From an uncultured Alphaproteobacteria bacterium (GTDB lineage Bacteria; Pseudomonadota; Alphaproteobacteria; Rhizobiales; Xanthobacteraceae): a DNA stretch of 64,000 nt. The position numbers and the translations under genes are program-made. The stretch covers positions 135,616 through 199,615 of the forward strand of contig CAVTZH010000007.1 in assembly GCA_963739175.1 (NCBI GenBank), written 5' to 3'. How positions within the stretch are numbered: position 1 is the first letter of the stretch; each line of letters starts with the position of its first letter. Positions 6,770 through 39,691 of the stretch are shown piece by piece. Below the pieces are notes generated by a model. That model searched no databases. It was not told the origin of the DNA and saw only the letters and a list, made by a program, of their open reading frames with translations.

Positions 6770-6970
6770 GGGCGACTCCCTTCCTTGAACGACGAACGAA
6801 AATCCCGTTGGCGCCGTTTGTGACGCTCAAAGCGCCTTGTCGAAGCCTAGCCCTGAAGTCTATGGCCCGTCCATGGGCTGGCGGCCGCACCGCGCCGAGA
6901 GCGGTGGGGCACCGTGACGGTCAAATGTCACGCGGGAATGTCGGTCGAGGGGAAACGAGGAGCTTTTTCG

Positions 6971-7741
6971 ATGGCACGGACGTCAACAAAGAAGCGCAGC
7001 CGAGCCTCGCCAAAGGCTGCGCGGTCGTCAAAGCGGCCGGCGGCCAAGCCCATCGATCTCTACTATTGGCCGACACCCAACGGTTACAAAGTGTCAATCA
7101 TGCTGGAGGAATGCGGCCTGCCGTACCGCGTCATCCCGCTCAACATCGCCCGCGGCGATCAGTTCAAGCCGGAGTTTCTGGCGATCTCGCCCAACAATCG
7201 CATGCCCGCGATCGTCGATCCCGCGGGGCCCGGCGGCCGGCCGATCTCGATCTTCGAGTCCGGCGCCATCCTGCAATATCTCGGCCGTAAGACCGGGCGC
7301 TTCTACCCGGCCTCGGAACGCGCGCGGGTCGAGGTCGATCAATGGCTGTTCTGGCAGATGGCCAATCTCGGCCCCAAGGCCGGCGAGTGTCATCACTTCC
7401 GCCTGTACGCGCCCGAGCGCGCGACGCAGCAATACGCGATCGATCGCTTCACCAACGAGTGCAACCGGCTCTATGGCGTCATGAACCGCCGCCTGGCGGA
7501 TCGGGATTTCCTCGCCGGGAGCTACTCGATCGCCGACATGGCCTGTGTCGGCTGGGCCAGCCGCTGGCAGCGGCAGGGGCAGGACATCGACGCGTTTCCG
7601 CATCTCAAGCGCTGGCTCGACCGCATGCTGGCGCGGCGCGCCGTCTATAAGGGCATGCACATCTGGGTGGAGGCGGCGTCCAAGGTCCGCATGGACGACC
7701 CTGCCACCCGTACGACGCTGTTCGGCCAGCGCGCGCGCTAG
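6971..7741 (+). CDS. Glutathione S-transferase, Nu-class (YfcG/YghU-like)
   Basis: Aligns by eye with E. coli YfcG ('IDLYYWPTPNGYKVSIMLEE', 'FKPEFLAISPNNRMPAIVD', 'IFESGAILQYL', 'WLFWQM', 'YSIADMAC'). The ATG at 6971 has GAGGAG 8 nt upstream. The longer ORF from 6914 is less likely. Confidence 0.85.
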   Translation: MARTSTKKRSRASPKAARSSKRPAAKPIDLYYWPTPNGYKVSIMLEECGLPYRVIPLNIARGDQFKPEFLAISPNNRMPAIVDPAGPGGRPISIFESGAILQYLGRKTGRFYPASERARVEVDQWLFWQMANLGPKAGECHHFRLYAPERATQQYAIDRFTNECNRLYGVMNRRLADRDFLAGSYSIADMACVGWASRWQRQGQDIDAFPHLKRWLDRMLARRAVYKGMHIWVEAASKVRMDDPATRTTLFGQRAR

Positions 7742-7935: not shown

Positions 7936-9966
7936 TCAGCAACAAGCCCCATATGAGCCGTCGGCTTCGACGCGGAACGATTGCGCCGGCTCGCCGTGTT
8001 GCGAGATGTCCCACATTCGCCGGTAGGCGGCTTCGAGGCTGTGTGCGAATTGATCGGTGTCGAACAAAGGCGTACTGAGCCGGTTCCGGGCAAGCTTCTC
8101 ACGCGCCGCCGCAAGCCTGCCGGCATCGGTCGCGAGGGTCAGCGCCAGCGCCTCATAGTCGGGAAGATTGTACGTTATTAATTCTGGCATCCCCACCGCA
8201 TGCAGCAGGCTCGCGGCCACGCGACCGGGAAAGGCCTGGCCCTGGCAGGTGACCAGCGGCAACCCTGCCCACAACGCATCGCTGGCGGTGGTGTGGGCGT
8301 TACAGGGCACAGTATCCAGGAACAGGTCGGCGAGGCGGTGCCGCGCCAGATGGGCCGCGAGACTGCACGATTCCGCGAAAATGAGCCGAGCCGGATCGAT
8401 GCCACGCGCACGTGCTTCGCGCCGCAAGGCGGCCTCGGCGCTGCCCCGTATCAGCCACAGGACGCTGCCCGGCACCGCCTGCAGGAGGCGCATCCATGTG
8501 TCGAACACTGGCCCCGTGATCTTGAAGTGGTTATTGAAGCTGCAGAAGACGAATCCATTCGCCGGCAGATGCGCCGCCTCTCGTGTCGGCGTGTCCGCGG
8601 CGATCGCGCGCTTGCCATCGTTGACCTGATAGCTGCCGGGAAGCTGCACGACCTTCTCGCTGAAGAACGCATGCTGGTCGAGCGGCAGCACGATCGGGTC
8701 GGCGATGATGTAATCCAAGAAATCCGCGCCGATCGTCCCCGGATAACCCAGATATCCAACCTGGATCGGCGCCGGCCGATAGGCCAGGACCGCGAGACGC
8801 GAGTTGCGGGTATGGCCCTTGAGATCGATTGCAATATCGACGTCGAGCGCGCGCAGCCGGCTTGCGATATCACGATCGCTACTAGCGCGCACGTCATGGA
8901 ATGCGTCGAACGAGCGAACTAGCCGCTCGCGGATAGCCGAGCCGTCGTCGATGCCGAAGGATACACCCAGCACCTCAAATTGTGTCCGATCATGCACCTC
9001 GAACAGCTCGGCCATCAGATAGGCGGTCGCATGCTTGTGAAAATCCGCGGAGAGGTAGGCGAGCCTGATCCGGTCATGACGGCGTGCGACTGGGCCTTTA
9101 CACATCGGCTCCGGACGACTTGGCAATCGGTCCGCGACAAAGTTCCTGGCGCACTGCAGGTGCAGCGCCGGATCGTCGCTGTAGCCGACCAGCGTGAACG
9201 GGTTCACGCTCGGCTTGCCGGCCATGAGCGCGTCATGAAGAGGAGCGGCAAGCGCTTCGGTGCGCGCCCAGTCGCAGGTCGCCATGGCAGGGACGACGAT
9301 GCCAAATCGGTCGGGATGATCGGTCGAAATCGCCAGCGCGGCGCCATAGCTCGTCAGCGCTTCGTCGAAGCGCTTGATCTCACTGAACAGATTGCCGAGA
9401 CCGTAGTGCACGGCGGCGTGGCGGGGCGCTAATTCCCGCACGCGGTCATAGCTTGCAAGAGCTTCGTCGTAGCGCCTGAGTTCCTGCAGCGTAGCGCCGC
9501 GGATAATGAGCGTCTCGACATGAGCGGGATGGACCGCCAGTACCTGGTTGTAGCTTACGAGGGCTTCCTGATATCGGCACAGCTTGAACAGCGCGTTGCC
9601 GCGATTGTACTGCGCCTCGATGTTGCCGGGCTGCAACGACAGCGCACGGTCGTAGTCCGACAGCGCCTGCTCGTAGCGAGCCATGGCCGCCAGGATGTTG
9701 CCGCGATTATAGAAGGCCTCGGCATAGTCCTGCTTGAGCTCGATCGCCGCCGCGATCAGGCCGAGGGCTTCTTCGGTGCGGCCCTGCTGGAAACGCAGGA
9801 TGCCGAGGAAGTGGCGCGCCTCGGCATGTTCGCGCTTGGCGTTGAGGAGCTGTCGATAGCAGCGCTCGGCGTCGGCAAGCTCCCCGCGCCGGTGAAATGT
9901 GGTGGCCTGACTAAGCAGTTCCGCGAGGTCGAGCGTCTTTGATCCGGGCGGGGATTTGGCCATCAC
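7936..9966 (-). CDS. TPR-repeat protein fused to GT41 (SPINDLY/O-GlcNAc-transferase-like) glycosyltransferase domain
   Basis: 676 aa. The N-terminal ~220 aa are 34-residue TPR repeats. The C-terminal module is shared with two paralogues ('RIRLAYLSADF', 'PAPIQVGYLGYPGT', 'FCSFNNHFKI', 'GSVLWL', 'ADLFLDTVPCNAHTTASDALWAGLPLVTC', 'FPGRVAASLL'). Confidence 0.85.
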   Translation of the reverse strand: MMAKSPPGSKTLDLAELLSQATTFHRRGELADAERCYRQLLNAKREHAEARHFLGILRFQQGRTEEALGLIAAAIELKQDYAEAFYNRGNILAAMARYEQALSDYDRALSLQPGNIEAQYNRGNALFKLCRYQEALVSYNQVLAVHPAHVETLIIRGATLQELRRYDEALASYDRVRELAPRHAAVHYGLGNLFSEIKRFDEALTSYGAALAISTDHPDRFGIVVPAMATCDWARTEALAAPLHDALMAGKPSVNPFTLVGYSDDPALHLQCARNFVADRLPSRPEPMCKGPVARRHDRIRLAYLSADFHKHATAYLMAELFEVHDRTQFEVLGVSFGIDDGSAIRERLVRSFDAFHDVRASSDRDIASRLRALDVDIAIDLKGHTRNSRLAVLAYRPAPIQVGYLGYPGTIGADFLDYIIADPIVLPLDQHAFFSEKVVQLPGSYQVNDGKRAIAADTPTREAAHLPANGFVFCSFNNHFKITGPVFDTWMRLLQAVPGSVLWLIRGSAEAALRREARARGIDPARLIFAESCSLAAHLARHRLADLFLDTVPCNAHTTASDALWAGLPLVTCQGQAFPGRVAASLLHAVGMPELITYNLPDYEALALTLATDAGRLAAAREKLARNRLSTPLFDTDQFAHSLEAAYRRMWDISQHGEPAQSFRVEADGSYGACC

Positions 9967-10015
9967 TCATCACATATTCATCGGCTCGATGAAATTTACT
10001 ACTTCTTACGGTTAG

Positions 10016-10225
10016 TTGTTAGTGGCCTGTGCGCTCCGCGCCGACTTTTGCAGGCGGTCTTTGGGCACGCGAGCGGAGGTGAAGGACGCCGACTTTGTTG
10101 CCGATGCCAAGAAACAGAATCTGGATGTCGCCCCCGTAGACGGCGAGCACCTCGCCACATTGATCAAAAAGATTTATGCGACGCCAAAGCCGATCGTGGA
10201 CAAGATTATCGAGCTGATCAGGTAA
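10016..10225 (+). pseudogene. Possible C-terminal remnant of a periplasmic solute-binding protein
   Basis: The 69-aa ORF's last ~45 residues ('DADFVADAKKQNLDVAPVDGEHLATLIKKIYATPKPIVDKIIELI') look like the C-terminal helix region of a binding protein. There is no N-terminal part and no signal peptide, and it lies in an AT-richer spacer. Confidence 0.3.
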
Positions 10226-10548
10226 CCCTGTATCGGCAGGGCCAGCCGCTGGCGCGCGCTCGTAACTCCGCCTCCCGACACCGTTGCGACGATGGTTATC
10301 AGCCCGTCAACCGCCGGCACCGGCGGGCACGGCTGGTCCCGCGAATATCAAGTCAAACCACGTCATTTGCGGCCTGATCCGAAGTATAGGCGCGGTTTTG
10401 CTAGTCGTATTCAGATTTGGTTCACGTCGATCCTTAAAACGCCATTCAAATCTTATCGGCCATAGTCGCGTCACTCGGCCGGGGGGCTGAGTGGGATCGT
10501 GCGAAGCCTGCGAGCTGACGGGTGTGCACGAACAGGGGAGTGCCGAAC

Positions 10549-10818
10549 ATGGCTCGTTTTGAACTCAGTGAATGCAACCACGCCGTCCTCGGTGAGGGGC
10601 CGGTCAACGCCAGCACGCTGTTCGATCTCGGCATGATGTATTCGGTCGGGCGCAGCGTGCCGGTCGACTACGTCACCGCGCACAAGTGGTTCAATCTCGC
10701 GGCGATGCAGGGCAACCGGGAAGCGGCTCGCTTGCGCCAGGAAGTCGCCGAGCAGATGTCCCACGCGGACATCGCGGCAGCGCAACGCGCAGCACGGGCG
10801 TGGCTCAAGGCGGCCTGA
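10549..10818 (+). CDS. Sel1-like repeat (SLR) protein
   Basis: 'LFDLGMMYSVGRSVPVDYVTAHKWFNLAAMQGNREA' is a canonical Sel1 repeat. The ATG at 10549 has an AGGGGAG Shine-Dalgarno. No signal peptide seen. Confidence 0.7.
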   Translation: MARFELSECNHAVLGEGPVNASTLFDLGMMYSVGRSVPVDYVTAHKWFNLAAMQGNREAARLRQEVAEQMSHADIAAAQRAARAWLKAA

Positions 10819-10835
10819 TCCGGGCTTTGCGGGCC

Positions 10836-12995
10836 TCAGGTTTTTGCGTTGGCTGACGCCAGCGCACGGACGGCATCGGCGATCCGCGCGAACACCGGCT
10901 CCCAGTCGCCTTCCACCTGCTGCCGGAACAGCCGCGCGGTCGGGTAGAATACGCTGTCCTCGCGTTCGAGCAGCCAGCGCCAGTCGGGCACTCGTCGTAG
11001 CGCGATGAAGGTCGGGCGACCGAATGCGGCCGCCAGGTGGCCCATCATCGAGTCCGATGTCACCACCAAATCCAGGTTGGCGAGCAGGGCGGCCGTATTG
11101 AGCGGAGCTTCGGGCCCCTTGTCGGATTCATCGATGATGCGCTCGATACGATCGCCAAACCGGACTTGATCAATCTGCTCGAGACCGGGGTGCTTCTGAA
11201 GCGAGATCAGGCGCACGCCGGGAATGTCGGCGAGCGGCTCGAATGCGCGTAACGGGATGGAGCGGCCGGCGTCGGTCCAGTTCTCCCTGTTGCCTTGCCA
11301 CGCGATTCCGACACGGAAACCGTTTGAGCCGAGGCGGTCCCTCCATTGGGTGATGTTCTCGGGATCGGTCGAAAAATACGGAACGTCGAAGGCAACCTGT
11401 TCGGGCCGCAACTTGAGGACGTAAGGCACGCTCATCAGGGGCAGCCAGTGCTTCGGCGCGAGATCTTGCAACGCCTGCTGATCCGTCACCACCGCCTCGA
11501 CGCCAACGAGCGTGCGCAGGAGCGGCGCCAGGCTAGGCAGCGTCAGCAACTGGACCCGATATCCCTGACGAACCAGGCGGGCGGCGAATCCGGCAAAATG
11601 AATCGCGTCGCCGATGCCTTGCTCGGTCTCGAGCAGGATGGGCTCGCTCGTCGGCTCTCCGTTCCAGCGCGGAAACGGCGTGTCCTGGGTCTGCCCCGGT
11701 GACGCAACGCGCCGATCGATGTCGGAGCCGGCATTGAGGAAACGCCGGTGCAGCGTATTGAAGGCGGGCACCTCCAGCCGGAGCTCATATCTGCGCAGCC
11801 CGTCCTCCCAGCGGCCTTCCAGCATGTCGGCGAGCCCGATAACGAATTGCACATGCGGATTGTCGCTCTCCGTGCGGCAGCCCCGATCGAACGCCTCGAA
11901 GGCTTCGGAAAAACGGCCGAGCGCATGCAGCGCCAAGCCGCGATCGATGTGAATGGTGCCGCGCTCGGGAGCGAGCGACAGCGCGCGATCGAGGGCGGCC
12001 AGGGCATCCGCGGGGCGATTGCGCTTGATCAGGATCGCGCCGCGCAAGGCATGCGCGTCGGCGAGATGGGGCTCAAGTGCAAGCGCGCGGTCGATGCTGG
12101 TCAGGGCTTCATCGAGCCGTGCGGAGTCGCAGAGCAGGCGCCCGTGCAGTTGCCACGCCGCAAACCAGTCCGGGTGAGCCGCGAGCACGCGCTCGCAATG
12201 CGCCAGCGCGGCGACGAGATCGCCGGCCTTGTGCAGGATCGCGGCCCGCTCGAGTTGCGCCTCGCGCCACGTTGGATAGAGCGTGATCGCGCGATCGACA
12301 CACGCGAGCGCGCCATCGAATTGCTCGCGGTCTGCCAGCAGGACGGCGCGCGCGATGAGGGCAGGGGGGAAGTCCGGCTGCAGCGCGAGCACCCGATCGC
12401 AACTGGCGAGCGCGTCCTCCCATCGGCCCAGCACGTGCAATGCTTTGCTGCGATTCAGCCACGCTTCCGCGAGGTTCGGCACCAGCGCGATCGCGCGGTC
12501 GTAGCTTGCAAGTGCGTCCTCGTGACGGCCGAGCGACTGCAACAGTGAACCGCGGTTGACGAGCGCCGACACCAGGTCGGGCATCAGCGCGAGCGCGCGC
12601 TCATAGGCATCGAGCGCTTCGTGCGGGCGCTGCAAGTCCTGCAGGATGTCGCCGCGATTGGCGTGCGCCTCCGCGAAATTTTGGTCGCTGGCGATCGCAG
12701 CATTGCTGCTTGCGAGAGCGTCGTCGGCGCGGCCGGTTTCGCGCAGCGCCATGCTCAATGTGTTGTGGGCGGCGGCGTGTGCAGGAGCCAGCGACACGGC
12801 TCTGCGAAGGTGCTTGATGGCATCCTTGAATTCGCCGAGATGGCACTGCGCCAATCCAGAGAGATACAGCGCGTCGATATTCTTCGGCTCGCGACGGATG
12901 ATCTCGGCGTAGCGATCGCGCGCATCCGCGAACGCGCCCTGCTCGTGGCGATGAATGGCTTCCTGGAGCAAGTACGACAAGTCAGGTGCCGCCAT
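10836..12995 (-). CDS. TPR-repeat protein fused to GT9 (heptosyltransferase-like) glycosyltransferase domain
   Basis: 719 aa. About 12 TPR repeats fill the first ~410 aa. The C-terminal domain has GT9-like features ('GIGDAIHFAGFAARL', 'GIAWQGN', 'LDLVVTSDSMMGHLAAAFGRPT'). Confidence 0.8.
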   Translation of the reverse strand: MAAPDLSYLLQEAIHRHEQGAFADARDRYAEIIRREPKNIDALYLSGLAQCHLGEFKDAIKHLRRAVSLAPAHAAAHNTLSMALRETGRADDALASSNAAIASDQNFAEAHANRGDILQDLQRPHEALDAYERALALMPDLVSALVNRGSLLQSLGRHEDALASYDRAIALVPNLAEAWLNRSKALHVLGRWEDALASCDRVLALQPDFPPALIARAVLLADREQFDGALACVDRAITLYPTWREAQLERAAILHKAGDLVAALAHCERVLAAHPDWFAAWQLHGRLLCDSARLDEALTSIDRALALEPHLADAHALRGAILIKRNRPADALAALDRALSLAPERGTIHIDRGLALHALGRFSEAFEAFDRGCRTESDNPHVQFVIGLADMLEGRWEDGLRRYELRLEVPAFNTLHRRFLNAGSDIDRRVASPGQTQDTPFPRWNGEPTSEPILLETEQGIGDAIHFAGFAARLVRQGYRVQLLTLPSLAPLLRTLVGVEAVVTDQQALQDLAPKHWLPLMSVPYVLKLRPEQVAFDVPYFSTDPENITQWRDRLGSNGFRVGIAWQGNRENWTDAGRSIPLRAFEPLADIPGVRLISLQKHPGLEQIDQVRFGDRIERIIDESDKGPEAPLNTAALLANLDLVVTSDSMMGHLAAAFGRPTFIALRRVPDWRWLLEREDSVFYPTARLFRQQVEGDWEPVFARIADAVRALASANAKT

Positions 12996-13195
12996 GGTCG
13001 CCTACCGAAACTGCGGGCCCAGATTTGCCGATCAACAAGTTTTGCTGGTCAATACAGGTTTGCGTGATGGGAAGGAAAAGCAGGCCGGCTCGACGTTGTG
13101 ACATCGTACATCTTCGCCGGAACTCGAAACTGCTTTCGGAAATACTGATCGGGCCGGAGCGATACGCGGAATCGGCTCCCTTGCAGGGAGAAACT

Positions 13196-13288
13196 TGGCG
13201 GAGAGGAAGGGATTCGAACCCTTGATACGGCTTTAGACCGTATAACGGTTTAGCAAACCGCCGCCTTCAGCCACTCGGCCACCTCTCC
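13196..13288 (-). tRNA. tRNA-Ser (anticodon GCU)
   Basis: The reverse complement reads GGAGAGGTGGCCGAGTGGCTGAAGGCG-GCGGT-TTGCTAA-ACCGT-(long variable arm TATACGGTCTAAAGCCGTAT)-CAAGGGTTCGAATCCCTT-CCTCTCC-GCCA. It has a cloverleaf, a T-loop GGTTCGAATCC, the long extra arm typical of Ser, and an encoded CCA. Confidence 0.93.
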
Positions 13289-13936
13289 GACGCGAAACAC
13301 CCGTATCTTTCACGATATTGGGGGTCAAGGCATGACGTGATTTCCGTTGCCATGATGCCGATTCCCGAGGCGATAACGAGCCGTTAAAGGGCGTTGGATC
13401 GGCGTTTCACGACATGGGTACGAAGTTCAGCCCGGCTGGGGCAGTACAAAACGTCAATGGAACTCCTGCGCAAGACGGTCAGCGGTAACCCGCAAGTCTC
13501 TCCTTCCCGCGGCCATAAACATGGGCCGTATAAAAACATAAATCGCTGATAAAGTTGAAATATTCGATAGGTGTACAGTTGGGCGGGGCGGACGAAAGCT
13601 CGCCGGGGCCAAGTCTTCCACAAGCATTCTACAGGTGGCGATCGGGAGATATGCTAGGATTTGCGTGCGAGAAATCGGGAGTGTTTTTTAGGCAACACTT
13701 GCCGGAAATCAGCGCCCCACGTTGTTTAAAAGGGCGCTTCATCATTGCCTGCAATCAACTCTCGGTTAATCTGATCGTGCGACGGCGGGGGGCATCCCGA
13801 GGTCGCCCTGTGCGGTTGTCGGCGGTTGTATAGACCGAAAACCGGACGGTCACGGGGACTGAAGGGGACCTTCCAGGGGTGCGGAGCACCCGGCGGAGAC
13901 GGAACCCTCCCATGAGAGACAACTTGGAGGTTCAAC

Positions 13937-15379
13937 ATGAAGATGGTGAAAAGTCTTCTCCTCGGTTCTGCGGCGGGTGTGGTCGCGGTTGCCGGGGCGC
14001 AGGCTGCCGATCTTCCCGTCAAGGCCAAGCCGGTCCAGTACGTGAAGATCTGCACGCTCTACGGAGACGGGTTCTACTACATCCCCGGCTCCGACACGTG
14101 CATCAGGTTCAACGGATATATCCGGGCTGACTACAACTTCAACGGCCGTACACCGCACGTGCAGACCGGCGCCAACGGCGCGCAGGACCGCACCGTGCAG
14201 CGGTCGTCGACCCGGCACCGCGCGAACTTCGGCATTGATACGCGTACGCAGACTGCCTACGGCACTCTGCGCACGTATATGAACGTCAATATCGATAACG
14301 AGCTGGGCTCGGATGCCGCCCAGGCAACTCGTGCGTTCATCCAGTGGGGTGGCTTCACCTTCGGTCGTACGGCGTCGTTCGTCGACCACGAAGGCAGCCT
14401 CGGTGACTCGGGCTTCCGCTCGCTGTACACCGGCCTCGTCGATGCCACCACCGGCGCCGCTGGTATCAACCAGATCGCCTACACCTGGCAGCTCGGCAAC
14501 GGCATCACCCTGAACGTCGGTGCCGACGACGAGCGCAAGCGCTCGGTCGCCAACCTGAGCGCGACGACGATCACGGTCGGCACCGATCCGACCAGCTCCT
14601 CGCATGGCCAGTCGCATCCGGACCCGTGGGTCTCGTTGCGCATCAGCCAGGCTTGGGGCCGCGCCAGCGTGGCGGTGCTCGGTCACAAGAATGCCGCCAC
14701 CTACTACAGCGCGGGCGGCGGCGTCGGCATCTGCACGCAGGCCGGCACCACGCTGTGCAACCATCCGGCCGACCAGTGGGGCTTTGCGGTCGTCTCCGGC
14801 ATCGAGATCAAGCTTGACTCGTTGAGCCCGGGCAGCCGCATCGGCGGTTACGTCACCTACGGCCAGGGCGCATCCCGTGTCACGCGCAACAGCCAGACCA
14901 GCCCGGGCCTGTTCGGCTCCGGCAACCAGGTCGCCTTCGGTGTGCTGACCGACGCGGCTTACATCAACGGCTCGAGCCTCGAGCTGACCACGACGTGGGC
15001 GGCGGGTGGCGGGTTCGAATACTTCTGGACCCGTAACTTCTCGAGCACGATCTACGGCGGCTACACCCGCACCGAGTACAACAACAACGTGATCGCCGGC
15101 CGTTGGTTCTGCGCCGGCACGATCACGGTCTCTGCGGCGGTGGCTTGCGATCCGGGCTACAGCCTGTGGCAGATCGGCACGCATCACGACTGGTTCCCGG
15201 TCCCCGGGCTCCGGTTTGCGGTCGACGTGCTCTACACCGGCGTCGAGTCGGCATTCGCCGGCCAGACCATCACGCTCGGCAAGGCGGTGGGCGCTCGCCC
15301 GACCGGCGTCTACACCGCCAAGGACCTCGGCATTCTCGCGATCGCGTTCCGCGCTCAGCGCACCTGGGGCGCCGACTAA
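13937..15379 (+). CDS. Outer-membrane porin (alphaproteobacterial Porin_2/Omp2-type)
   Basis: 480 aa. Signal peptide 'AGAQAADLPVKAKPVQYVKIC', 'GDGFYYIPGSDTCIRFNGYIRADY', alternating beta-strand pattern, and a C-terminal aromatic-rich strand. Confidence 0.9.
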   Translation: MKMVKSLLLGSAAGVVAVAGAQAADLPVKAKPVQYVKICTLYGDGFYYIPGSDTCIRFNGYIRADYNFNGRTPHVQTGANGAQDRTVQRSSTRHRANFGIDTRTQTAYGTLRTYMNVNIDNELGSDAAQATRAFIQWGGFTFGRTASFVDHEGSLGDSGFRSLYTGLVDATTGAAGINQIAYTWQLGNGITLNVGADDERKRSVANLSATTITVGTDPTSSSHGQSHPDPWVSLRISQAWGRASVAVLGHKNAATYYSAGGGVGICTQAGTTLCNHPADQWGFAVVSGIEIKLDSLSPGSRIGGYVTYGQGASRVTRNSQTSPGLFGSGNQVAFGVLTDAAYINGSSLELTTTWAAGGGFEYFWTRNFSSTIYGGYTRTEYNNNVIAGRWFCAGTITVSAAVACDPGYSLWQIGTHHDWFPVPGLRFAVDVLYTGVESAFAGQTITLGKAVGARPTGVYTAKDLGILAIAFRAQRTWGAD

Positions 15380-15422
15380 GCCGAAGCACGAAGTCAGCGA
15401 GGCCGATGAGGTCTCTCTTGAA

Positions 15423-15452
15423 CCCCCGGCGGGACTTCCGCCGGGGGTTTTT
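15423..15452 (+). terminator. Rho-independent terminator of the porin gene
   Basis: Perfect 10-bp GC stem CCCCCGGCGG / CCGCCGGGGG, a 5-nt loop, then TTTTT. Confidence 0.8.
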
Positions 15453-15482
15453 GCATGAGCGGCGGCCGCTACGCCGGCGATC

Positions 15483-16370
15483 TCACGATGCTTCGCATCG
15501 GGCCACGAATTCAGCGATTCTCGCGATCACGTCCTGCTCGGCCAATAGCGGGGCATGGCCTTGCTCCGGAACGACAAGCACGTCGATATCCGCGCGTCGG
15601 GCGCACATCTCCGTCACGGTCTGTTCCGACAGGATGTCCGAGTTGGCGCCGCGGATGACCATGACCGGAACCGAAGCGAGGGCGTCGAACTCCTTCCAGA
15701 GCGGCGGCAGCGAACGCTCCAAGTCGATGCTCTCGAGCACTTTGGCAAGCTGCGGATCGTAGCGCGGCGCCAGCGCGCCATTCGCCTCCTTGAATGTGCG
15801 CCTCGCGAACATCATCCAGTCGTCTGCGCCGAGCCCGGAAAACTGCGTGCCGAACAGATGCCGGAGGATCTCCGCGGCGTCCTCGAAGCTCTTGGGTTGC
15901 GGCAGACGTCCAAGGTAGCTCTTGATTCGCACAAGCCCCTTGGTCTCGATCACCGGCCCGATGTCATTGAGGACGACGCCGGCAATCGCCGCCGGCCGTA
16001 CGGTGGCCAGCATCATTGCCAGGATTCCGCCGCGCGACGTGCCGACGAAAACCGCGGGCTCGATCTCGAGCGCGGTCAACACCGCGAGCAGGTCGGCGAT
16101 CTCGGTGGCGATGTTGTAGTTGGCTGGATCGGTGTCGTATTCCGATTCACCACGTCCGCGATAGTCGATGGCGAGTACCTGGCGGGCCCGGTGCGGGTCG
16201 TGGGCCAGCGCTGTCGCGAGCGGAACGAAATCGTCGGTTGTTCTCGCCAGCCCGGGCAGGCATACCACCGGACGTTGCTGGCCGGGTGTCCCAAAGCCGC
16301 GCGCGTGCAGCCGCAACCCGTCGGGCGCCGATACGAAGAAATGGGCGCCGTCTTGCTCTTGCACGCTCAT
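15483..16370 (-). CDS. Alpha/beta-fold hydrolase
   Basis: 'VVCLPGLARTTDDF', nucleophile elbow 'FVGTSRGG' (G-x-S-x-G), and C-terminal 'VPEQGHAPLL' with the catalytic His. The start is set at the ATG at 16370 (MSVQEQDG). The longer ORF to 16631 would collide with the divergent gene start. Confidence 0.8.
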   Translation of the reverse strand: MSVQEQDGAHFFVSAPDGLRLHARGFGTPGQQRPVVCLPGLARTTDDFVPLATALAHDPHRARQVLAIDYRGRGESEYDTDPANYNIATEIADLLAVLTALEIEPAVFVGTSRGGILAMMLATVRPAAIAGVVLNDIGPVIETKGLVRIKSYLGRLPQPKSFEDAAEILRHLFGTQFSGLGADDWMMFARRTFKEANGALAPRYDPQLAKVLESIDLERSLPPLWKEFDALASVPVMVIRGANSDILSEQTVTEMCARRADIDVLVVPEQGHAPLLAEQDVIARIAEFVARCEAS

Positions 16371-16534
16371 CGCATCCCCGCGGTAGCCGTCGGCCGAGCC
16401 GGGGCCGCCGCCTTGCGAGTGTCGCAACGCGACGCCAAGCTGCGTATAAGGGGCCCCGGCCCACGCCGTCGCGACGGGCGGCACGGCCGCGTGTTCCCGG
16501 ATCGCGCCAGCGGCATGAAAGGACATCCTCGACA

Positions 16535-18926
16535 ATGACGCCGACGATCCAAATGGCAATGGACCTGCATCGTCAAGGCCGACTCGGTGAGGCGGAGATT
16601 CAGTACCGGAGCCTGCTGGCGAAATCTCCAAGCCAGTTCGACGTGCTTCATTTGTTCGGGATCCTGAAGCTACAGCAGGGCAATCTTGCGGAAGCGCTGA
16701 CGTTGATTTCGAAGGCGGTCGAGATCAATCCGTCAGCGCTCGATGCGCGATCAAATCTGATTGCCGCCCTGTTTGGTCTTAACCGGCATGCCGAGGCGCT
16801 CGATCACTGCAATAGCGCCCTTGCCTCTGGTCCGGCGGATGCGGGGATGATCTACAATCGCGGCGCCGCGTTGCTGCAACTCGGCCGTTATGACGAGGCA
16901 TTGGGCGATTTCGACAAAGTCCTTGCGACCAAGTCCGATCACATCAATGCATTGTTCAATCGCGCCGCCGCGCTGGCAGGCTTGCGGCGGTACGAGGAGG
17001 CGATCGTCGACTTTGGCCGGCTGTTGGGATTCGCGCCGCGCCATGCCGACGCGCTCACCAACCGGGGGACGTTGTTGGCGCAGCTTGGACGCGATGCCGA
17101 CGCGCTCGCGAGTTTCGACCAAGCGCTCGTCATCTCGCCGAAGCACGCAAACGCACTGACCAATCGCGGCATCGCGCTGAAAAATCTCGCCCGATACGAT
17201 GAGGCCCTTGCCAGCCTCGATCGGGCGCTTGCGGTCGAGCCCGATCACGTCGGCGCGCATGTCAATCGCAGCAATGTGCTGCTCAACCTGCACCGCACCG
17301 AGGACGCGCTGGCGGGTTTCGAGCGCGCCCTCGCACTCGCCCCGTCGAACCCTAACGCATTGACAAACAAAGCATTTGCGCTCCGAAACCTCGGTCGGTA
17401 CCAGGAGGCCCTGGAAAGCTGCGACCAAGCCCTTGCCGCCGACCCGCTGCATGCCAACGCCACCTTGATCAGAGCACACGTGCTCGCAGCTCTTGATCGT
17501 CCGGCGGAGGCCGCGGCCAGCTACGAGCGGGTCCTGACGATTGATCCGGACAATTCATACGCGTTTGGCTCTTCAGTGGTGGCATACCGGTGGGCCTGCG
17601 AATGGGATCGCGTCGAGCAACTCTTGCCCGCGCTCGAACAATCCATCGGCGTTGGTCAAGCCGTGATTCCGCCATTCGGTCTGCTCGGGCTGCCGCTCGC
17701 ACCCGCCACTCAACTGCAATGTGCAAAGAATTTCATGCGCCAGACATTTCCGGCTGAGGCGAGACCGTTCCCGGTCAGGCAGCGCCAGCAGTCCGGTCGG
17801 ATCAAGCTGGCTTATTTATCAGCAGATTTCCGTCGACACGCGATTGCGTATCTCTTGGCTGAGCTGCTGGAGCGTCACGATCGACACCGCTTTGAGGTCA
17901 TCGGCATATCCTACGGCGTCGACGACGGCAGCGAGGAGCGTCGCCGCCTGATGGCGGCCTGCGATCATTTCCATGACGTCCGTGCCCGCGACGAACGGGA
18001 TACCGCCACCCTGATCAACGATCTGCAGATCGACATCGCCATCGACCTCGGCATTCATACCGCCAGCTGGCGCCCGGGAATTTTACGGGATCGTCCGGCA
18101 CCGGTGCAGGTGAGCTATCTCGGCTATACCGGAACGTTAGGTGCCGACTTCATCGACTACGTGGTGGCCGACAGGGTGGCGTTGCCGTCGGATCTCGCAC
18201 CCTATTTCACTGAAAAGATCGTGCACCTGCCCGAACTCCTTCCAGGTCAACGACACCAGGAAACCAATCGTGTCGGATATGCCGTCGCGCGCCAACGCCG
18301 GGCTGCCCGACGGGGGCTTTGTTTTCTGCTGCTTCAACAACAGCTTCAAGATCTCAGCCGCCGTCTTTTCTGTCTGGATGCGTTTGCTGGCGGCCGTGGA
18401 CGGAAGCGTGTTGTGGCTTCAGCAAATGAATCGGCGGGCCGCCGACAATCTTTGTTCCGCCGCGGCGTCCGCCGGCGTCGATCCGGCGCGCCTGGTGTTT
18501 GCCGAGTGGTGCAGTCATGAAACGCATCTTGCCCGGCTACACTTGGCCGACCTCTTTCTCGACACGCCGGGCTGCAATGCCGGCACCACCGGAAGTGACG
18601 CGCTTGGGTCGGGGCTTCCGGTGTTGACCTGCGCCGGCACGGCGTTCCCGGGCCGGGTCGCTGCGAGCCTCCTGCACGCCATCGGGCTCCCGGAGCTGGT
18701 GACGACGTCGATTGACGACTACGAGGCCTTGGCGCTGAAGCTTGCCCGCGATCCGGCGCTGCTGCAGTCGATCCGCCGCAAGCTCGAAGCGAACCGGCTC
18801 ACGCACCCGTTGTTCAATACCGATCGTTTTCGCCGCCATCTGGAGGCGGCCTACGCAACCATGTTGGATCTCGCGCGGCGGGGCGAGACGCCGCGCAGCT
18901 TCAGCGTGGACCCGGTCGACGCGTGA
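16535..18926 (+). pseudogene. TPR-repeat / GT41 (SPINDLY-OGT-like) glycosyltransferase, frame broken once
   Basis: Two ORFs (16535.. and ..18926) join into one paralogue of 7936-9966 and 18923-21451. At 18227-18236, 'ctg ccc gaa ctc' reads IVHLPELLPGQ. Removing one C of the CCC run (18230-18232) gives IVHLPNSFQVND, matching the paralogues (LPDCFLVND / LPGSYQVND). Confidence 0.8.
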
Positions 18927-21451
18927 GGCTTTGCGTGCAGTCCCCCGAGCCGATAGCGTCGTTGCTCGATGAGGCGGCGGCGCTGCATCGCTCGGGCGCG
19001 CTCGACGAAGCCGCGGCTCGCTATGCGCGCGTGCTGCATGGCGACCCCGTCAACGCAACGGCGCTCCACCACCTGGCGCAGATCCGCTGTCAACAGGGCC
19101 GCTTTGCCGAGGGCGTCGAGCTGGTGCGGCGTGGGCTGGCAGTCGAGCCGCAGCGCGCACGCTCCCATGTGCTGCTGGGGCGGGCGCTGGTCGAGCTTGG
19201 GGACCTCGCGGAGGCGCTGGCGAGCTTCGACCGCGCCATTGTCTACGAAGGCACCCACGCCGGCGCCCATGGCAACCGGGGCGATGTTCTGGCCCGGCTT
19301 GGCCGTCTGCAGGAGGCGATCGAGAGCTACCGGCAGGCGATCGCGATCGAGCCGGGCTCGCTGGCCAACTGGTGCAATCTCGGCGCCGCGCAGGCCGAGC
19401 TCGGCCGCCACGACGAGGCGCTGGCGAGCTACCAGCAGGTGATCGCCCTCCAGCCGAGCTTTATCGAAGCGCATCTGATGCGCGGCAATCTGCTGAGGGC
19501 GCTGGGGCGGAACGCCGAGGCGCTTGAGAGCTACGACCGTGCCTTGGCGGTAGCGCCGAACGAGGTGTCGGCCCTGATCGGACGGGCGGACGTGCTGGTG
19601 GCCCTCAAGCGGCCGGACGATGCGCTGGCAAGTCTCGACCAGGCCCTCTCGATCGATCCGTCGGATGCCGGCGCCCTGAGCAACCGCGGTTTCCTGTTGC
19701 AGTCGCTCAACCGCCACGACGAGGCGCTGGCGAGCCTCGACCGCGCGCTCCAGATCGATCCGAACCATGCCGGAGCCCTGTTCAATCGCGGGTCGGTGCT
19801 GTCCGAGTTCGGCCGCTACGGCGAGGCCCTCACGAGCTACGACCACGCGGTGGCGGTATCGCCGTCGGATGTGAAAGCGCACTGCAATCGATCGAAGACG
19901 CTGTTTGCGCTCAACCGCTTCGACGAGGCGCTCGCCGGGACCGAGCAGGCCCTCGCGCTCGATCCCGCGCATGTCGAGTCGCTCTATACCCGCGGCATGG
20001 TGCTCGGCCGGCTCAACCGTTACGACGAAGCGATTGCCGCGTCCGAGCGCGTCCTGGAACTGGCTTCGGCACACCCGCATGCCTTGGCGCAGCTGGCGAC
20101 GAGTTGTCTCGCGATCTGTGCGTGGGATAAGGCCGCCGCCGCCGCGGGCCGCCTGACCGAGGCGCTTGCGGCCGGAACCGCCGTCGTCGCACCACATACC
20201 CTGCTGCAATTGTCGGCCAGCCCGGCCGTGACGCTAGCCGCCACCCGCCGCTATGTGGAGCGCGAAATCCCGCCCGGCCCGCGGCTGGAGCCTGCTCCAT
20301 CCGCCGCCGGCGGCGACAAGATCAGGGTGGCCTACCTGTCGGGCGATTTTCGCGTGCATCCGGTCGCCTATTTGACGGCCGAGCTGTTCGAGCGGCACGA
20401 CCGCGGCCGCTTCGAGATCATCGGGCTGTCGTTCGGTCCCGACGACAAGAGCGCGTTGCGGGCGCGGATCGCAAGGTCATTCGATCAATTCCATGACGTG
20501 CGCACCGTCGACGACCGCGACGTGGCGGCGCTGATCCGGCGGCTCGGCATCGATATCGCCGTCGACCTGAGCGGGCACACCGACAACGCGCGGCCCGGCG
20601 TCCTGCGCTACCGGGCGGCGCCGGTGCAGGTGAACTATCTCGGCTTCGCCGGGACCATGGGGGCTGACTTCATCGACTACATCATCGCCGACAAGGTCGT
20701 GCTGCCGCTCGACCAGCAGCCGTATTATGCGGAGAAGATCGTTCACCTGCCGGATTGCTTCCTGGTCAACGACGCGACCAAGGCGATATCGCGGACCCCC
20801 TTGCGCGCGGAGGCAGGCCTGCCGGACAAGGGCGTCGTCTTCTGCTGCTTCAACAACGCCTACAAGATATCGCGCGAGGTGTTCGCCGTCTGGATGCGCC
20901 TGCTTGGGCAAGTCGACGGCAGCGTGCTGTGGCTGTCACGGCTCGACGCTCGCGCCTGCGAGAATTTGCGGGTCGCAGCGCGCGCCACCGGCATCGACCC
21001 GGGACGGATCGTGTTTGCGCCACGCGCGCCGGCCATGGCCGATCATTTCGCCCGTCAGCGGCTTGCCGACCTGTTCCTCGATACCCCCGGCTATAACGCC
21101 CACACCACCGCAAGCGACGCGCTCTGGGCGGGCCTTCCAGTGCTGACGTGCATCGGCACGACCTTCGCGGGGCGGGTGGCGGCGAGCCTGTTGCAGTCCG
21201 TGGGTTTGTCGGAGCTGGTGACGGAAACGCTCGACGACTACGAGGCGTTGGCGCTCGAGCTTGCACGCCGGCCGGCCGTGCTTGCGGGCATCCGGCAACG
21301 GCTTGCGCAGAACCGCCTGACCCATCCGCTGTTCGATACGGCACGGTTCACGCGCCATCTCGAACGCGCCTACGAGACGATGCTCGAGAACGCGCGCCAG
21401 GGCAGGGGTCCGCAGAGCTTCAGCGTCGAGCCGGTCGACGTCGCAGGCTGA
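18923..21451 (+). CDS. TPR-repeat / GT41 (SPINDLY-OGT-like) glycosyltransferase
   Basis: 842 aa with ~11 TPR repeats plus the conserved C-terminal module ('KIRVAYLSGDF', 'PVQVNYLGFAGTMGADFIDY', 'VFCCFNNAYKIS', 'GSVLWL', 'ADLFLDTPGYNAHTTASDALWAGLPVLTC'). The GTG start overlaps the upstream stop (GTGA). Confidence 0.85.
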   Translation: MRLCVQSPEPIASLLDEAAALHRSGALDEAAARYARVLHGDPVNATALHHLAQIRCQQGRFAEGVELVRRGLAVEPQRARSHVLLGRALVELGDLAEALASFDRAIVYEGTHAGAHGNRGDVLARLGRLQEAIESYRQAIAIEPGSLANWCNLGAAQAELGRHDEALASYQQVIALQPSFIEAHLMRGNLLRALGRNAEALESYDRALAVAPNEVSALIGRADVLVALKRPDDALASLDQALSIDPSDAGALSNRGFLLQSLNRHDEALASLDRALQIDPNHAGALFNRGSVLSEFGRYGEALTSYDHAVAVSPSDVKAHCNRSKTLFALNRFDEALAGTEQALALDPAHVESLYTRGMVLGRLNRYDEAIAASERVLELASAHPHALAQLATSCLAICAWDKAAAAAGRLTEALAAGTAVVAPHTLLQLSASPAVTLAATRRYVEREIPPGPRLEPAPSAAGGDKIRVAYLSGDFRVHPVAYLTAELFERHDRGRFEIIGLSFGPDDKSALRARIARSFDQFHDVRTVDDRDVAALIRRLGIDIAVDLSGHTDNARPGVLRYRAAPVQVNYLGFAGTMGADFIDYIIADKVVLPLDQQPYYAEKIVHLPDCFLVNDATKAISRTPLRAEAGLPDKGVVFCCFNNAYKISREVFAVWMRLLGQVDGSVLWLSRLDARACENLRVAARATGIDPGRIVFAPRAPAMADHFARQRLADLFLDTPGYNAHTTASDALWAGLPVLTCIGTTFAGRVAASLLQSVGLSELVTETLDDYEALALELARRPAVLAGIRQRLAQNRLTHPLFDTARFTRHLERAYETMLENARQGRGPQSFSVEPVDVAG

Positions 21452-21453
21452 GG

Positions 21454-23772
21454 TTAGTTCGCGCTGGCGCCGCGGCGGATGTCGGCCTCGATCATCAGCT
21501 TGTCGCCGCCGCCAAAGCGGATGCGATAGACCTGCATGTTCTCCATCACGCGCTGCACGTAGTTGCGTGTCTCAGCGAACGGGATGCGTTCGACCCAGTC
21601 GACCGGGTCGACGTTGGGGTCGCGCGGGTCGCCGTAGCGGGCGACCCAGTCGCGGATGCGGCCGCGCCCGGCGTTGTAGCCAACGAAAGTGAGCACGTAG
21701 GAGCCGCGGAAATCGGCCAGCAGGTCGCCGAGCTCGGCGGCGCCGAACTGCACGTTGTAGACCGGGTCGGACAGCAGCTTCTTCTCGTTGTAGGTAACCT
21801 TGAACTTCCTGGCGATATATTTGCCCGCCGCCGGCGTCACCTGCATCAGGCCCATCGCGCGGGCGCTGGAGACGGTCTTCTGGTTGAACGTGCTTTCCTG
21901 CCGGGCGATCGCATAGATCAGCGGCTTCTCGACCGCCGGGCCGATCGCGGTGTAGTTCGGCATGCCGATGGTCGGGAACGCGTAGGTCTCGAGCGGCAGG
22001 CCGCGCCCGAGCGCCGCCTTGCCAAGCAGCAGCATGGCGCGGGCGTCGTTGTTGCGCGCAGCGACTTCGCCAATCGCAGCCAGCGCGCCGGCGTCGTTGG
22101 AGCGGTCGCCGAAGTCGGCGGCGGCGCCGACCACCATGTCGCGCTGGCCGACGGCATAGAGCATCTCCATGGCGCGCACGACGTCGGTTGAGCCCGACGG
22201 CTGTGACGGCGCCGAGCGCAGCGCAATATTTCGCAGCCCGAGCTTCGCGCCGGCGAGCTGTCCGTAGTACGCGGTCGGATGCTGCGCGGCCGCCTGGTAG
22301 TGGTTCTTGGCCTCGCCACTGCGTCCCTGCGCCTCATAGGTGCGGCCCAGCCAGTAGTGCGCGCGCGCAAGCGAGATTGCGTGGGTTGAGCCGTCCGGGA
22401 TGCGCGCGAAATGGGTCAGCGCGGTCGCCGGATCCTTGACGAAGCGCAGCGCGATCCAGCCGGCGGTGAACTGATGCTCGACGCGATAGTTGTCGCGCTT
22501 GGGCACAGCGGCGTCGCGCGCGATCCGGTAGGCCTTCGTCGCGTCGCCGAGGTCGAGCATGTTGCGGGCGGCGAGCCGGCGCTCGATCCACCATTGATCG
22601 GTGTCGATCGTCTGTCCATCGCGCGGCGCCGACAGGATCAGATCGCCGGCTTCGGCCATACGGTCGTTGCGCCGCAGCCATTGCGCCAGGCTGAAGATGT
22701 AGCCGAGGTCGCGGCGCGCCGCGGATGGAACAGCGTCGAGTGCGGCCTTGGCATTGCCGGCCTTCTTCATGACCGCGATTCGCGCCTTGGCGATCGCCGG
22801 AGCGTCGCCGCCGGCGCGATTGGCATTGCGCAGGCCGCCGTCGGTATCCTCGGCATAGAGCCGCATGTTCATGCGCGCCTTGTGGTCCTCGGCGCTGAGC
22901 AGGCCGCTGAACGTCTCCAGCACCCGCGATTCGACGTCGGCGCCGAAGCCCTCGCTGCGCCAGCCCTCACGCACCTGCGCCTGCGCGCCGGCACGGTCGC
23001 CTTGTGCGAGCATGGCGCGCGCGAGCGCGAATTGCCCGCGGGCGGTAAGCGGCGGGTTCTTGGCAAAATAGGCGCGGACCGCTCCCGCGTCGGCCTGCTC
23101 GGCCCACATCATCGATTCCGCCCGCCGGCGCATCATGCCGACGCTCGGCCAGCTCGGATTGGCATTGATGAAGGCGAGGTAGCGTGCGGAGCTTGCCCCA
23201 TTGCTGTCGCTGCGCAGGATCGCCCATTCGACCAGCTTGCGCGACACCGGGTCCTGGATGTTCTGCTGGAGCGAGGTCGCCTGCGAGGCGCGACCCGCGC
23301 GCGCGTGCTCGATCGCCTGCTTGACGGTCGCCAGCTCGCCTGACACGGCCGGCGCGGGTGGCGTATCGGCGTCGGAACTCGCGGCGGATTTGCTGCCCTT
23401 GCCGCCCTTACCCTTGGCGGTCTTCTTGTCTTTCTTGCTCGCCTTCTTGCTCTCTTTCTTGGTCTCTTTTTTGGCTTCCTTCTTGGACGCTTCGTTTTTC
23501 TTTTCCTTGGTCTTGGTGGAAGCGGCCTTCTTGTCCTTGGTCGCGGCAGCCTTGGTTTTGTCCTTGGCCTTATCCTTGGCCGTGGATTTTGACTTCGCGG
23601 CGGAGGTTTCGGCCTGCGCGATGGTGGCGGCCTGCAGTCCGATCCCTGCAACGGCCACGAGCAGCAACGCTGTCAGCAGTCCTTGGACCCTGGTCAATGT
23701 GCCGGTTCTCCCCAGCGCCAGAGAGGTTGCGCTACCGCTGAGTGTTTTCAATTGATAAGATTGACGAAGCAC
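21454..23772 (-). CDS. slt: Soluble lytic murein transglycosylase (Slt70 family) with N-terminal Lys-rich linker
   Basis: 772 aa. It has a superhelical U-domain-like region and a C-terminal SLT domain ('ARQESTFNQKTVSSARAMGLMQVTP', 'YNAG'). A signal/anchor segment is followed by an ~85-aa K/S/T/A low-complexity stretch. Confidence 0.9.
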   Translation of the reverse strand: MLRQSYQLKTLSGSATSLALGRTGTLTRVQGLLTALLLVAVAGIGLQAATIAQAETSAAKSKSTAKDKAKDKTKAAATKDKKAASTKTKEKKNEASKKEAKKETKKESKKASKKDKKTAKGKGGKGSKSAASSDADTPPAPAVSGELATVKQAIEHARAGRASQATSLQQNIQDPVSRKLVEWAILRSDSNGASSARYLAFINANPSWPSVGMMRRRAESMMWAEQADAGAVRAYFAKNPPLTARGQFALARAMLAQGDRAGAQAQVREGWRSEGFGADVESRVLETFSGLLSAEDHKARMNMRLYAEDTDGGLRNANRAGGDAPAIAKARIAVMKKAGNAKAALDAVPSAARRDLGYIFSLAQWLRRNDRMAEAGDLILSAPRDGQTIDTDQWWIERRLAARNMLDLGDATKAYRIARDAAVPKRDNYRVEHQFTAGWIALRFVKDPATALTHFARIPDGSTHAISLARAHYWLGRTYEAQGRSGEAKNHYQAAAQHPTAYYGQLAGAKLGLRNIALRSAPSQPSGSTDVVRAMEMLYAVGQRDMVVGAAADFGDRSNDAGALAAIGEVAARNNDARAMLLLGKAALGRGLPLETYAFPTIGMPNYTAIGPAVEKPLIYAIARQESTFNQKTVSSARAMGLMQVTPAAGKYIARKFKVTYNEKKLLSDPVYNVQFGAAELGDLLADFRGSYVLTFVGYNAGRGRIRDWVARYGDPRDPNVDPVDWVERIPFAETRNYVQRVMENMQVYRIRFGGGDKLMIEADIRRGASAN

Positions 23773-23925: not shown

Positions 23926-24816
23926 ATGACCGCCAAGACGAGCTTCAGGGGATCGTTCACGGCGCTCGTCACCCCGTTCAAGAACGGCGGCCTCGACGAG
24001 GCCCGATTCCGCGGCCTGGTCGATTGGCAGATCGCCGAGGGAACCAACGGGCTGGTCCCGGTGGGAACCACCGGCGAGAGCCCGACGCTCAGCCACGACG
24101 AGCACAAGCGGGTCGTGGAGTGGTGCGTCGATCAGGCCAAGGGCAAGGTGCCTGTGGTCGCCGGCGCGGGATCGAATTCCACCAAGGAGGCGGTCGAGCT
24201 GTCGCAGCACGCCGAGAAGGCAGGCGCCAGCGCCGTGCTGATCGTGACGCCGTACTACAACAAGCCGACCCAGGACGGCCTCTACGGTCACTTCAAGGCG
24301 ATCAACGACGCGATCGGCATCCCGATCATCATCTACAACATCCCCGCTCGCTCGGTGGTCGACATGTCGGTCGAAACCATGACGCGGCTGTTCGAGCTTA
24401 AGAACATCGCCGGCGTCAAGGACGCGACCGCGAACATGGTGCGAGTGTCGCAGCAGCGCGCGGCCATGGGCGCGGACTTCAACCAGCTCTCGGGCGAGGA
24501 CGCGACCGCGCTGGGCTTCATGGCGCATGGCGGCCACGGCTGCATCTCGGTGACCTCGAACGTAGCGCCACGGCTATGCGCCGAGTTCCAGGGCGCGTGC
24601 GTGCGCGGCGACTATGCGACGGCATTGAAGCTGCAGGATAAGCTGATGCCGCTGCACAACGCGCTGTTCATCGAGACCAACCCATCGCCGGCGAAGTACG
24701 CGCTGTCGCTGCTCGGGCGCTGCGCCGACACCGTCCGCCTGCCGCTGGTCACGGTCGGCGACAAGACGAAAGCGGCCGTGCGCGACGCGATGGTGCATGC
24801 CGGATTGGTCAACTGA
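23926..24816 (+). CDS. dapA: 4-hydroxy-tetrahydrodipicolinate synthase
   Basis: 296 aa. '[10 protein letters not shown]', '[15 protein letters not shown]', '[10 protein letters not shown]', 'VTPYYNKP', 'IIIYNIP', 'GVKDAT' (active-site Lys). Confidence 0.97.
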
Positions 24817-24909
24817 TCTCAATGTGTCTTGCGCCTGCGTACCGGTCCGGCAAGGCAACAGCTTGCCGCACCGATCGCCCGTTCAGTGATTGCAAAGAGG
24901 AGGGGAGCG

Positions 24910-39485: not shown

Positions 39486-39691
39486 ATCGCCCACGCGCGC
39501 ACCATACGCGCACGATCCCGTCGCCTTGATGTCTGAGGTGTTCAGTTGCAATTCAGCTCAGTGGCGACGCCGCGGCGACGGCGTGGCCGCCGTTTGCAGC
39601 GGCTCGGTTCGTCGGGGTTTCACGCACGGCGGCCAGTGGCGAATTAAAGGTGAGGCTTGTTCCGGACGTTTTGCCGCAGTAATCAGATTCC

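Follow-up and report, generated by a model that had tools for sequence, protein, structure and literature searches.

Bacterial glycosyltransferases of family GT41 are abundant, and few of them have a known client or a known sugar. Those with published clients reportedly include the HMW1C-type enzymes, among them Yersinia pestis HmwC, and a cyanobacterial pilin Ogt. The asparagine ladder of OGT holds the backbone of the client, and we take position 6 of the tetratricopeptide repeat (TPR) to be the ladder position. For FlmG of Caulobacter, chimeras have shown that acceptor binding lies with the TPR part and donor choice with the GT-B domain (PMC7591256; bioRxiv 10.1101/2022.03.25.485807). A single active-site position, occupied by C917 in human OGT (hOGT), Y744 in Arabidopsis SPINDLY (SPY) and Y463 in XcOGT, has been proposed to set the size of the donor pocket and hence the sugar, and the gate Tyr of SPINDLY has been proposed to exclude GlcNAc (PMC9715652). 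Here we describe four genes encoding fusions of TPRs to a glycosyltransferase domain, located between gatB and slt on a stretch of 64,000 nucleotides (G000:C7:135616-199615, hereafter the window). The stretch belongs to an uncultured soil-type alphaproteobacterium of the Xanthobacteraceae with a genome of 5.87 Mb in 11 contigs, 86.5% complete, whose nearest named relatives are uncultured metagenome-assembled genomes (MAGs) of Xanthobacteraceae/Hyphomicrobiales. Three of the genes, GT41a, GT41b and GT41c, carry a GT41 domain and the fourth carries a GT9-like domain.

The four proteins are probably modular protein glycosyltransferases resembling OGT, XcOGT and SPINDLY that function in the manner of FlmG and form no pathway with the envelope genes beside them. 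GT41a (7936-9966, minus strand) comprises about 6 TPRs and a GT41 catalytic domain in 676 amino acids (aa), with the likely start at ATG 9963. GT41b (16535-18926, plus strand) has about 10 TPRs and a GT41 domain distributed over two frames (16535-18232 and 18234-18926), and GT41c (18923-21451, plus strand) has about 11 TPRs and a GT41 domain in 842 aa if translated from GTG 18923, or 838 aa from GTG 18935. The original prediction that the three share a C-terminal module of the GT41 or SPINDLY/OGT type, with TPR arrays of differing length, is borne out by Pfam, by homology to solved structures and by the conserved Lys and His residues, and all of the motif blocks on which it was built are present. 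With a cut-off of 25 bits, the PF13844 profile scored 284 bits in GT41a, 280 bits in GT41c and 101 and 155 bits in the two pieces of GT41b. The catalytic halves of GT41a and GT41c are about 58% identical, and their best full-length alignment shows 49% identity over 609 residues. An exact-sequence look-up of GT41c returned no database record of an identical protein.

In the search against solved structures GT41c matched human OGT with an E value of 2e-118. Its catalytic part aligns without interruption to residues 129-542 of XcOGT (270 bits), and the intervening domain of the metazoan enzymes is therefore absent; the alignment with hOGT splits into two blocks and skips the segment of the hOGT chain between them. 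In GT41c, XcOGT K388 is matched by the Lys in FCCFNNAYK and H218 by the His in DFRVH, while PGYNAHTT supplies the counterparts of both Y463 (its Tyr) and H466 (its His). Both residues that the original prediction had singled out for checking are kept in all three GT41 proteins, namely the catalytic Lys (hOGT K842, XcOGT K388, SPY K665; FCSFNNHFK in GT41a, FCCFNNSFK in GT41b, FCCFNNAYK in GT41c) and the His of the N-terminal lobe (hOGT H498, XcOGT H218, SPY H495; DFHKH, DFRRH and DFRVH, respectively). The phosphate-binding H-T-T motif (XcOGT H466, hOGT H920) reads NAHTT in GT41a and GT41c and NAGTT in GT41b, in which Gly takes the place of the phosphate-contacting His.

The TPRs stand in a strict 34-residue register, visible in the DNA as a periodicity of 102 nt. 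Asn occupies position 6 in seven of the nine repeats detected in GT41b, five of eight in GT41c, two of three in GT41a and three of six in the GT9-like protein. Selection of protein clients by the TPRs, as had been suggested, fits both this pattern and the published work on OGT and FlmG. None of the four proteins has a signal peptide or a hydrophobic segment of membrane grade, and all four are predicted to be soluble and cytoplasmic.

The three GT41 proteins differ at the proposed donor gate. GT41a combines a gate Cys with His at the phosphate-binding position, GT41b a gate Cys with Gly, and GT41c a gate Tyr with His. The last combination is the majority type, found in 78 of the 93 GT41 domains at the relatives' loci, whereas Cys with His occurs in four of the 93 and Cys with Gly in one; the phosphate-binding His is present in 83. 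The window thus pairs the majority gate type (GT41c) with two minority types (GT41a and GT41b), and the paralogues represent natural variation at the proposed gate. GT41c carries the Tyr of the SPINDLY type (Y744), whereas GT41a and GT41b carry Cys; since XcOGT also has Tyr, a gate Tyr alone does not define fucosyl transfer. The pattern fits a divergence in donor as well as in the client-binding TPRs, as far as residues at these sites can indicate.

Each enzyme combines a TPR superhelix at the N terminus with a GT-B domain at the C terminus and would act in the cytoplasm. By analogy with OGT, SPINDLY and FlmG, the client polypeptide would thread along the lumen of the TPRs, and one sugar would be moved from a nucleotide sugar to a Ser or Thr of the client, with the conserved Lys stabilising the diphosphate as it leaves. 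Because TPR number and donor pocket diverge, the paralogues most likely differ in their clients, in their sugars or in both; we infer protein acceptors, a Ser/Thr linkage and differing donors. A linkage with pilins or flagellins was considered and rejected: the Flp pilins map to C1:363k and C8:168k and the flagellins to contigs C4 and C5, none of them near a GT41 locus; type IV pilins were not part of this search.

Several points weigh against this assignment. When tried on bacterial lysates and short peptides, XcOGT, the nearest relative with a solved structure, gave no O-GlcNAc activity (PMC9715652). The gate-residue rule is a published proposal and not an established code. GT41b lacks the phosphate-contacting His and may therefore be weak or inactive. 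The history of the genes given below relies on a tree that was built by a quick method and has support under the star threshold at several deep nodes. Finally, the acceptor might be something other than protein, especially for the GT9-like enzyme; this is discussed with that enzyme and is rather unlikely.

Many loci of Xanthobacteraceae, those of several Bradyrhizobium species included, show synteny over the interval gatB…Sel1…porin…slt-dapA-mscL, and at least one TPR-GT41 gene lies between gatB and slt in all syntenic loci mapped. The syntenic intervals differ in how many GT41 genes they hold (1-4), in where the glycosyltransferase genes lie and which way they point, and in whether they include a TPR-GT9-like gene. 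In the quick maximum-likelihood tree of 40 catalytic domains, the locus-resident copies form a cluster that excludes the three remaining GT41 genes of the host genome (support 93). GT41b and GT41c fall into sister groups (support 100 and 99, respectively), each with four members drawn from the closest relatives. As each of these two groups includes close relatives, the tandem duplication is older than the close relatives sampled. The three GT41 genes of the window are accordingly best described, on the evidence of the tree and of gene order, as duplicates formed in place from a single GT41 gene long resident between gatB and slt. The other three GT41 genes of the host genome adjoin, as read from sequence, rho and genes for metallo-beta-lactamase-fold, Bug/TctC-type and ornithine-cyclodeaminase-like proteins.

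The original prediction had named the scattering of the paralogues as single genes in relatives as an argument against a functional system, and the relatives show both arrangements: 58 of 79 related loci carry a single GT41 gene and the remaining 21 carry arrays. One Methylococcales locus contains four GT41 and two GT9-like genes. Among 32 loci outside the block, a TPR-glycosyltransferase gene stands beside GT41 in 30, and the next family does so in four. The locus represents a routine expansion, typical of its lineage, within an enzyme family that is already known.

GT41a is a mosaic, as judged from the identities of its two domains. Its TPR domain is 57-58% identical to those of two genes on contig C1 and 36-38% identical to those of GT41b and GT41c, whereas its catalytic domain is 56-58% identical to those of GT41b and GT41c and 25-28% identical to those of the C1 genes. 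The latter are two tandem, highly divergent GT41-like genes located just downstream of rho. This composition points to natural shuffling of modules between TPR-glycosyltransferase paralogues. The TPR module in question occupies positions 9300-9966 of the window (minus strand), and the C1 partners occupy G000:C1:1407232-1412751 (minus strand). In the tree GT41a has a single orthologue (L016), and the closest relative, G013, has none between the GST gene and the Sel1 gene.

GT41c has orthologues in L013, L014 and L015. The GTGA overlap from which translational coupling of GT41b and GT41c had been proposed does exist; however, homology with the orthologue begins at the in-frame GTG 18935, which is preceded by GAGG, so that the two genes may be separated by a gap of 8 nt instead of overlapping. 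The two genes are tightly packed under either start.

The segment 16535-18926 had been read as one gene, but its 2392 nt do not form a single open frame, being divided by a 1-nt insertion near 18233 (feature 18227-18236, plus strand). The break is very probably an assembly artefact. In a survey of 49 window genes against the contiguous region of the short-read-assembled relative G013, about 15 frame breaks were found in 10 genes, nearly all of them single-base insertions in non-homopolymer contexts. Among the affected genes are one of the topoisomerase IV/gyrase A type (39593-41981), one for an ABC-3 permease and one for a PLP-dependent enzyme with an ACT domain. Single-base breaks this numerous, one of them in a topoisomerase gene, mark the pattern as a property of the assembly and not of the biology, and pseudogene calls in this genome need read support. 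The breaks recorded in the survey lie within 25700-57900 of the window, for example at 26316, 41088, 45692, 46047, 50147 and 50700, with further ones at 51968, 52932, 56070, 56676 and 57609. GT41 or porin matches in two to three frames or pieces were also seen in L015, L016, L028, L030, L048 and L060, and these split matches in the relatives' MAG loci are possibly the same kind of assembly error.

The alternative that GT41b is a real and recent pseudogene or a non-catalytic partner, redundant beside its paralogues, is unlikely. It draws on the insertion itself, as the extra base is missing from the GT41b orthologues of four relatives (L014, L015 and L016 among them), and on the Gly in place of the phosphate-contacting His. 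Moreover, of all copies GT41b departs most often from residues that are invariant in 33 other locus-resident GT41 domains, by three radical substitutions found in it alone (G to I, R to H and W to G), and in the tree its terminal branch has roughly double the length of the branches leading to its orthologues. These changes may mean that GT41b is catalytically altered. Set against them, besides the similar breaks elsewhere in the window, is the ratio of nonsynonymous to synonymous substitution rates (dN/dS) relative to the G013 orthologues, which at 0.18 for GT41b is the same as for the intact paralogues (0.19-0.25 for GT41c, 0.17 for the GT9-like gene). GT41b leads in unique changes by a narrow margin (3 vs 2), and the Cys/Gly variant of the active site also occurs in the GT41c copy of another genome.

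The fourth gene (10836-12995, minus strand) encodes a protein of 719 aa with about 11 TPRs and a C-terminal GT-B domain. It had been described as a fusion of about 12 TPRs to a GT9-like domain and counted as a paralogue of the other three. The fusion holds at the level of fold with marginal support in sequence, and the kinship extends to the TPR part, whereas the catalytic fold differs. PF01075 matched just over its cut-off (25.6 bits against 22) and over 29 residues only, and a sequence search of the PDB with the GT9-like domain returned TPR noise only. The C-terminal 320 residues were therefore considered through a structure modelled with AlphaFold (AF2) from an alignment of 27 sequences, which reached a predicted local distance difference test score (pLDDT) of 84.4 and a predicted template modelling score (pTM) of 0.84. 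The top Foldseek matches of the model were WaaF (1psw, E 1.4e-9), WaaC (2h1h), a Veillonella GT9 protein (3tov, TM-score 0.61) and TibC (4rap), and the GT9 matches overall ranged from E 1e-9 to 1e-5 with TM-scores of 0.45-0.61. By its predicted structure, the protein is GT9-like at the level of fold.

The TPR-GT9-like family looks uncharacterised: more than 2,600 homologues were present among the candidates scored, nearly all of them named just 'TPR protein'. Its genes adjoin GT41 in Xanthobacteraceae, in one gammaproteobacterial locus and in one Methylococcales locus; the loci listed for the family are L033, L071, L055, L060, L028 and L030. A JGI metagenome protein of 1256 aa, P0070, runs without a stop from a GT41 domain, of which it has just the final 150 residues, through TPRs into a GT9-like domain. 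This GT41-GT9 fusion was not used as a functional link, as it lies on an 8-kb contig and may be a read-through or a truncated call.

The GT9-like enzyme is also where a non-protein acceptor has most in its favour. According to this alternative the enzymes would act on a polysaccharide, a lipopolysaccharide (LPS) core or a lipid, with the TPRs tethering them to an assembly machine. In its favour, the structures closest in fold to the fourth enzyme are LPS heptosyltransferases, and XcOGT has no demonstrated bacterial protein substrates (PMC9715652). However, the window contains no polysaccharide, Wzx/Wzy or sugar-nucleotide genes, in agreement with the original prediction. In the 86.5%-complete genome the RfaE-type ADP-heptose kinase profile (TIGR02198, domain I) reached no more than 43 bits where its cut-off is 345, and no canonical GT9 enzyme was found in it; heptose as the donor is therefore doubtful. 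The characterised members of GT41 act on proteins, and the asparagine ladder of the OGT type is conserved. For the whole set of enzymes, as for the GT9-like one, we regard a non-protein acceptor as having a low probability.

The interpretation that we prefer, separate modular protein glycosyltransferases, has also to be set against the neighbouring genes. The gene order was built from open reading frames (ORFs), a tRNA scan and Pfam matches. On the left, gatB (4008-5477, plus strand) and a GST gene (6914-7741, plus strand) precede GT41a. A gene for a Sel1-repeat protein of 98 aa (10522-10818, plus strand) is convergent with the TPR-GT9-like gene, which lies downstream of tRNA-Ser(GCU) (13196-13288, minus strand, from the tRNA scan). 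A Porin_2 porin gene (13937-15379, plus strand, assigned by Pfam) and a gene for an alpha/beta hydrolase (15483-16631, minus strand) follow. The longest ORF of the hydrolase overlaps the start of GT41b by about 100 nt, so that its true start is probably further downstream; the hydrolase gene and the first GT41 gene form a divergent pair that is kept in those relatives which possess the hydrolase. Beyond GT41c lie slt (21454-23772, minus strand), dapA (23926-24816, plus strand), mscL (24829-25323, plus strand) and smpB (25341-25814, plus strand), and further downstream rpoZ (29612-30004), relA/spoT (30181-32520) and pdxJ (32896-33657). The tRNA scan and Pfam agree with the neighbours originally named (tRNA-Ser, porin, hydrolase, Sel1 and Slt). 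Their description as envelope-related holds for the porin and Slt, which have a signal peptide or hydrophobic segment; the Sel1 protein has no signal peptide and is therefore not evidently an envelope protein. The porin gene has two more copies in the genome (G000:C8:25214-26653 and G000:C9:128103-129544), both 97% identical to it. The identity is confined to the coding region, the flanks are unrelated and the C9 copy is frame-broken, which suggests, from sequence comparison, that the major porin gene was recently duplicated or underwent gene conversion.

That the four enzymes constitute one system for the glycosylation of envelope proteins, with the porin, Slt or the Sel1 protein as clients that receive their sugars in the cytoplasm prior to export, was the original proposal, and it appears improbable. 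Porin, Sel1 and at least one TPR-GT41 gene do stay together between gatB and slt across Xanthobacteraceae, Bradyrhizobium included, the GT9-like domain matches the fold of the protein heptosyltransferase TibC, among others, and there are precedents for cytoplasmic enzymes of the GT41 or GT9 type that modify exported adhesins (HMW1C, PMC3012730; TibC, 4rap/4rb4). However, the interval is a housekeeping block syntenic throughout the family, and linkage within one family is therefore weak evidence; the linkage on which the proposal draws consists only of such synteny. The four genes form no operon but three transcription units of mixed orientation on the ORF map, convergent or divergent relative to their neighbours, and the position and orientation of the glycosyltransferase genes shift within the block. 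Homologues of the porin, Sel1 and Slt do not recur beside GT41 in the 32 non-syntenic loci, and the porin copies on C8 and C9 have no glycosyltransferase neighbours. A coherent multi-enzyme system directed at the envelope is not supported by the locus.

More improbable still is the narrower version, in which the TPR-GT41 of the block would be a dedicated cytoplasmic enzyme for the porin or another exported protein, and the paralogues and the GT9-like enzyme would add further sugars sequentially; if true, it would amount to an OGT-type modification route for outer-membrane proteins. Two other explanations of the array were rejected, recent gene conversion between the paralogues on finding no long identical tracts (GT41b and GT41c are 71-74% identical in DNA), and a horizontally acquired island at tRNA-Ser because the interval is syntenic across the family, its GC content being unremarkable.

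The arrangement is common, with arrays in 21 of the 79 related loci, and will not surprise a specialist. Its value lies in a single chromosomal position (gatB…slt-dapA) at which orthologous TPR-GT41 genes are found in culturable Bradyrhizobium and Tardiphaga, where they are easier to test. Among described enzymes, XcOGT (XCC0866; 2JLB, 2VSN) likewise has its TPRs fused straight to the GT-B domain of GT41 with no intervening domain; K388, H218 and H466 are kept in GT41a and GT41c, and Y463 is kept in GT41c. The differences are the 6-11 TPRs of the window proteins, against a complete XcOGT chain of 568 residues, the gate Cys of GT41a and GT41b and the Gly at the position of H466 in GT41b. With human OGT (3PE3, 7NTF) the GT41 proteins of the window share the long TPR superhelix, the Asn at position 6, the equivalents of K842 and H498, the H920-T921-T922 motif and, in GT41a and GT41b, a gate of the Cys917 type. 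In contrast to human OGT, the GT41 proteins of the window lack the intervening domain and occur as several paralogues instead of one essential gene, and no match to a GH84 O-GlcNAcase (PF07555) was found in the 86.5%-complete genome, which does not prove its absence.

SPINDLY, a GT41 protein O-fucosyltransferase (7Y4I, 8DTF), matched the catalytic part with 172 bits and shares the catalytic Lys. Its score is below those of XcOGT and hOGT, GT41a and GT41b have Cys at its gate position, and the window contains no GDP-fucose genes. In fold, the C-terminal domain of the fourth protein comes closest to the GT9 enzymes WaaC, WaaF and TibC; there is also the marginal PF01075 match, and the conserved N-terminal G-D motif of the GT9-like family presumably resembles the catalytic Asp region of WaaC. 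Unlike these enzymes, the window domain is fused to about 11 TPRs; identity is 10-15%, no ADP-heptose marker was found in the incomplete genome, and the annotated window genes include no autotransporter client gene. The Caulobacter enzyme FlmG is, by architecture alone, similar to all four as a soluble alphaproteobacterial flagellin O-glycosyltransferase composed of TPRs and a GT-B domain. It differs in that no flagellin or nonulosonic-acid genes lie near the glycosyltransferase genes of the window, the flagellin genes being on C4 and C5. The FlmG chimeras have a natural counterpart in this locus, since the exchange of TPR modules that GT41a appears to have undergone parallels those experiments.

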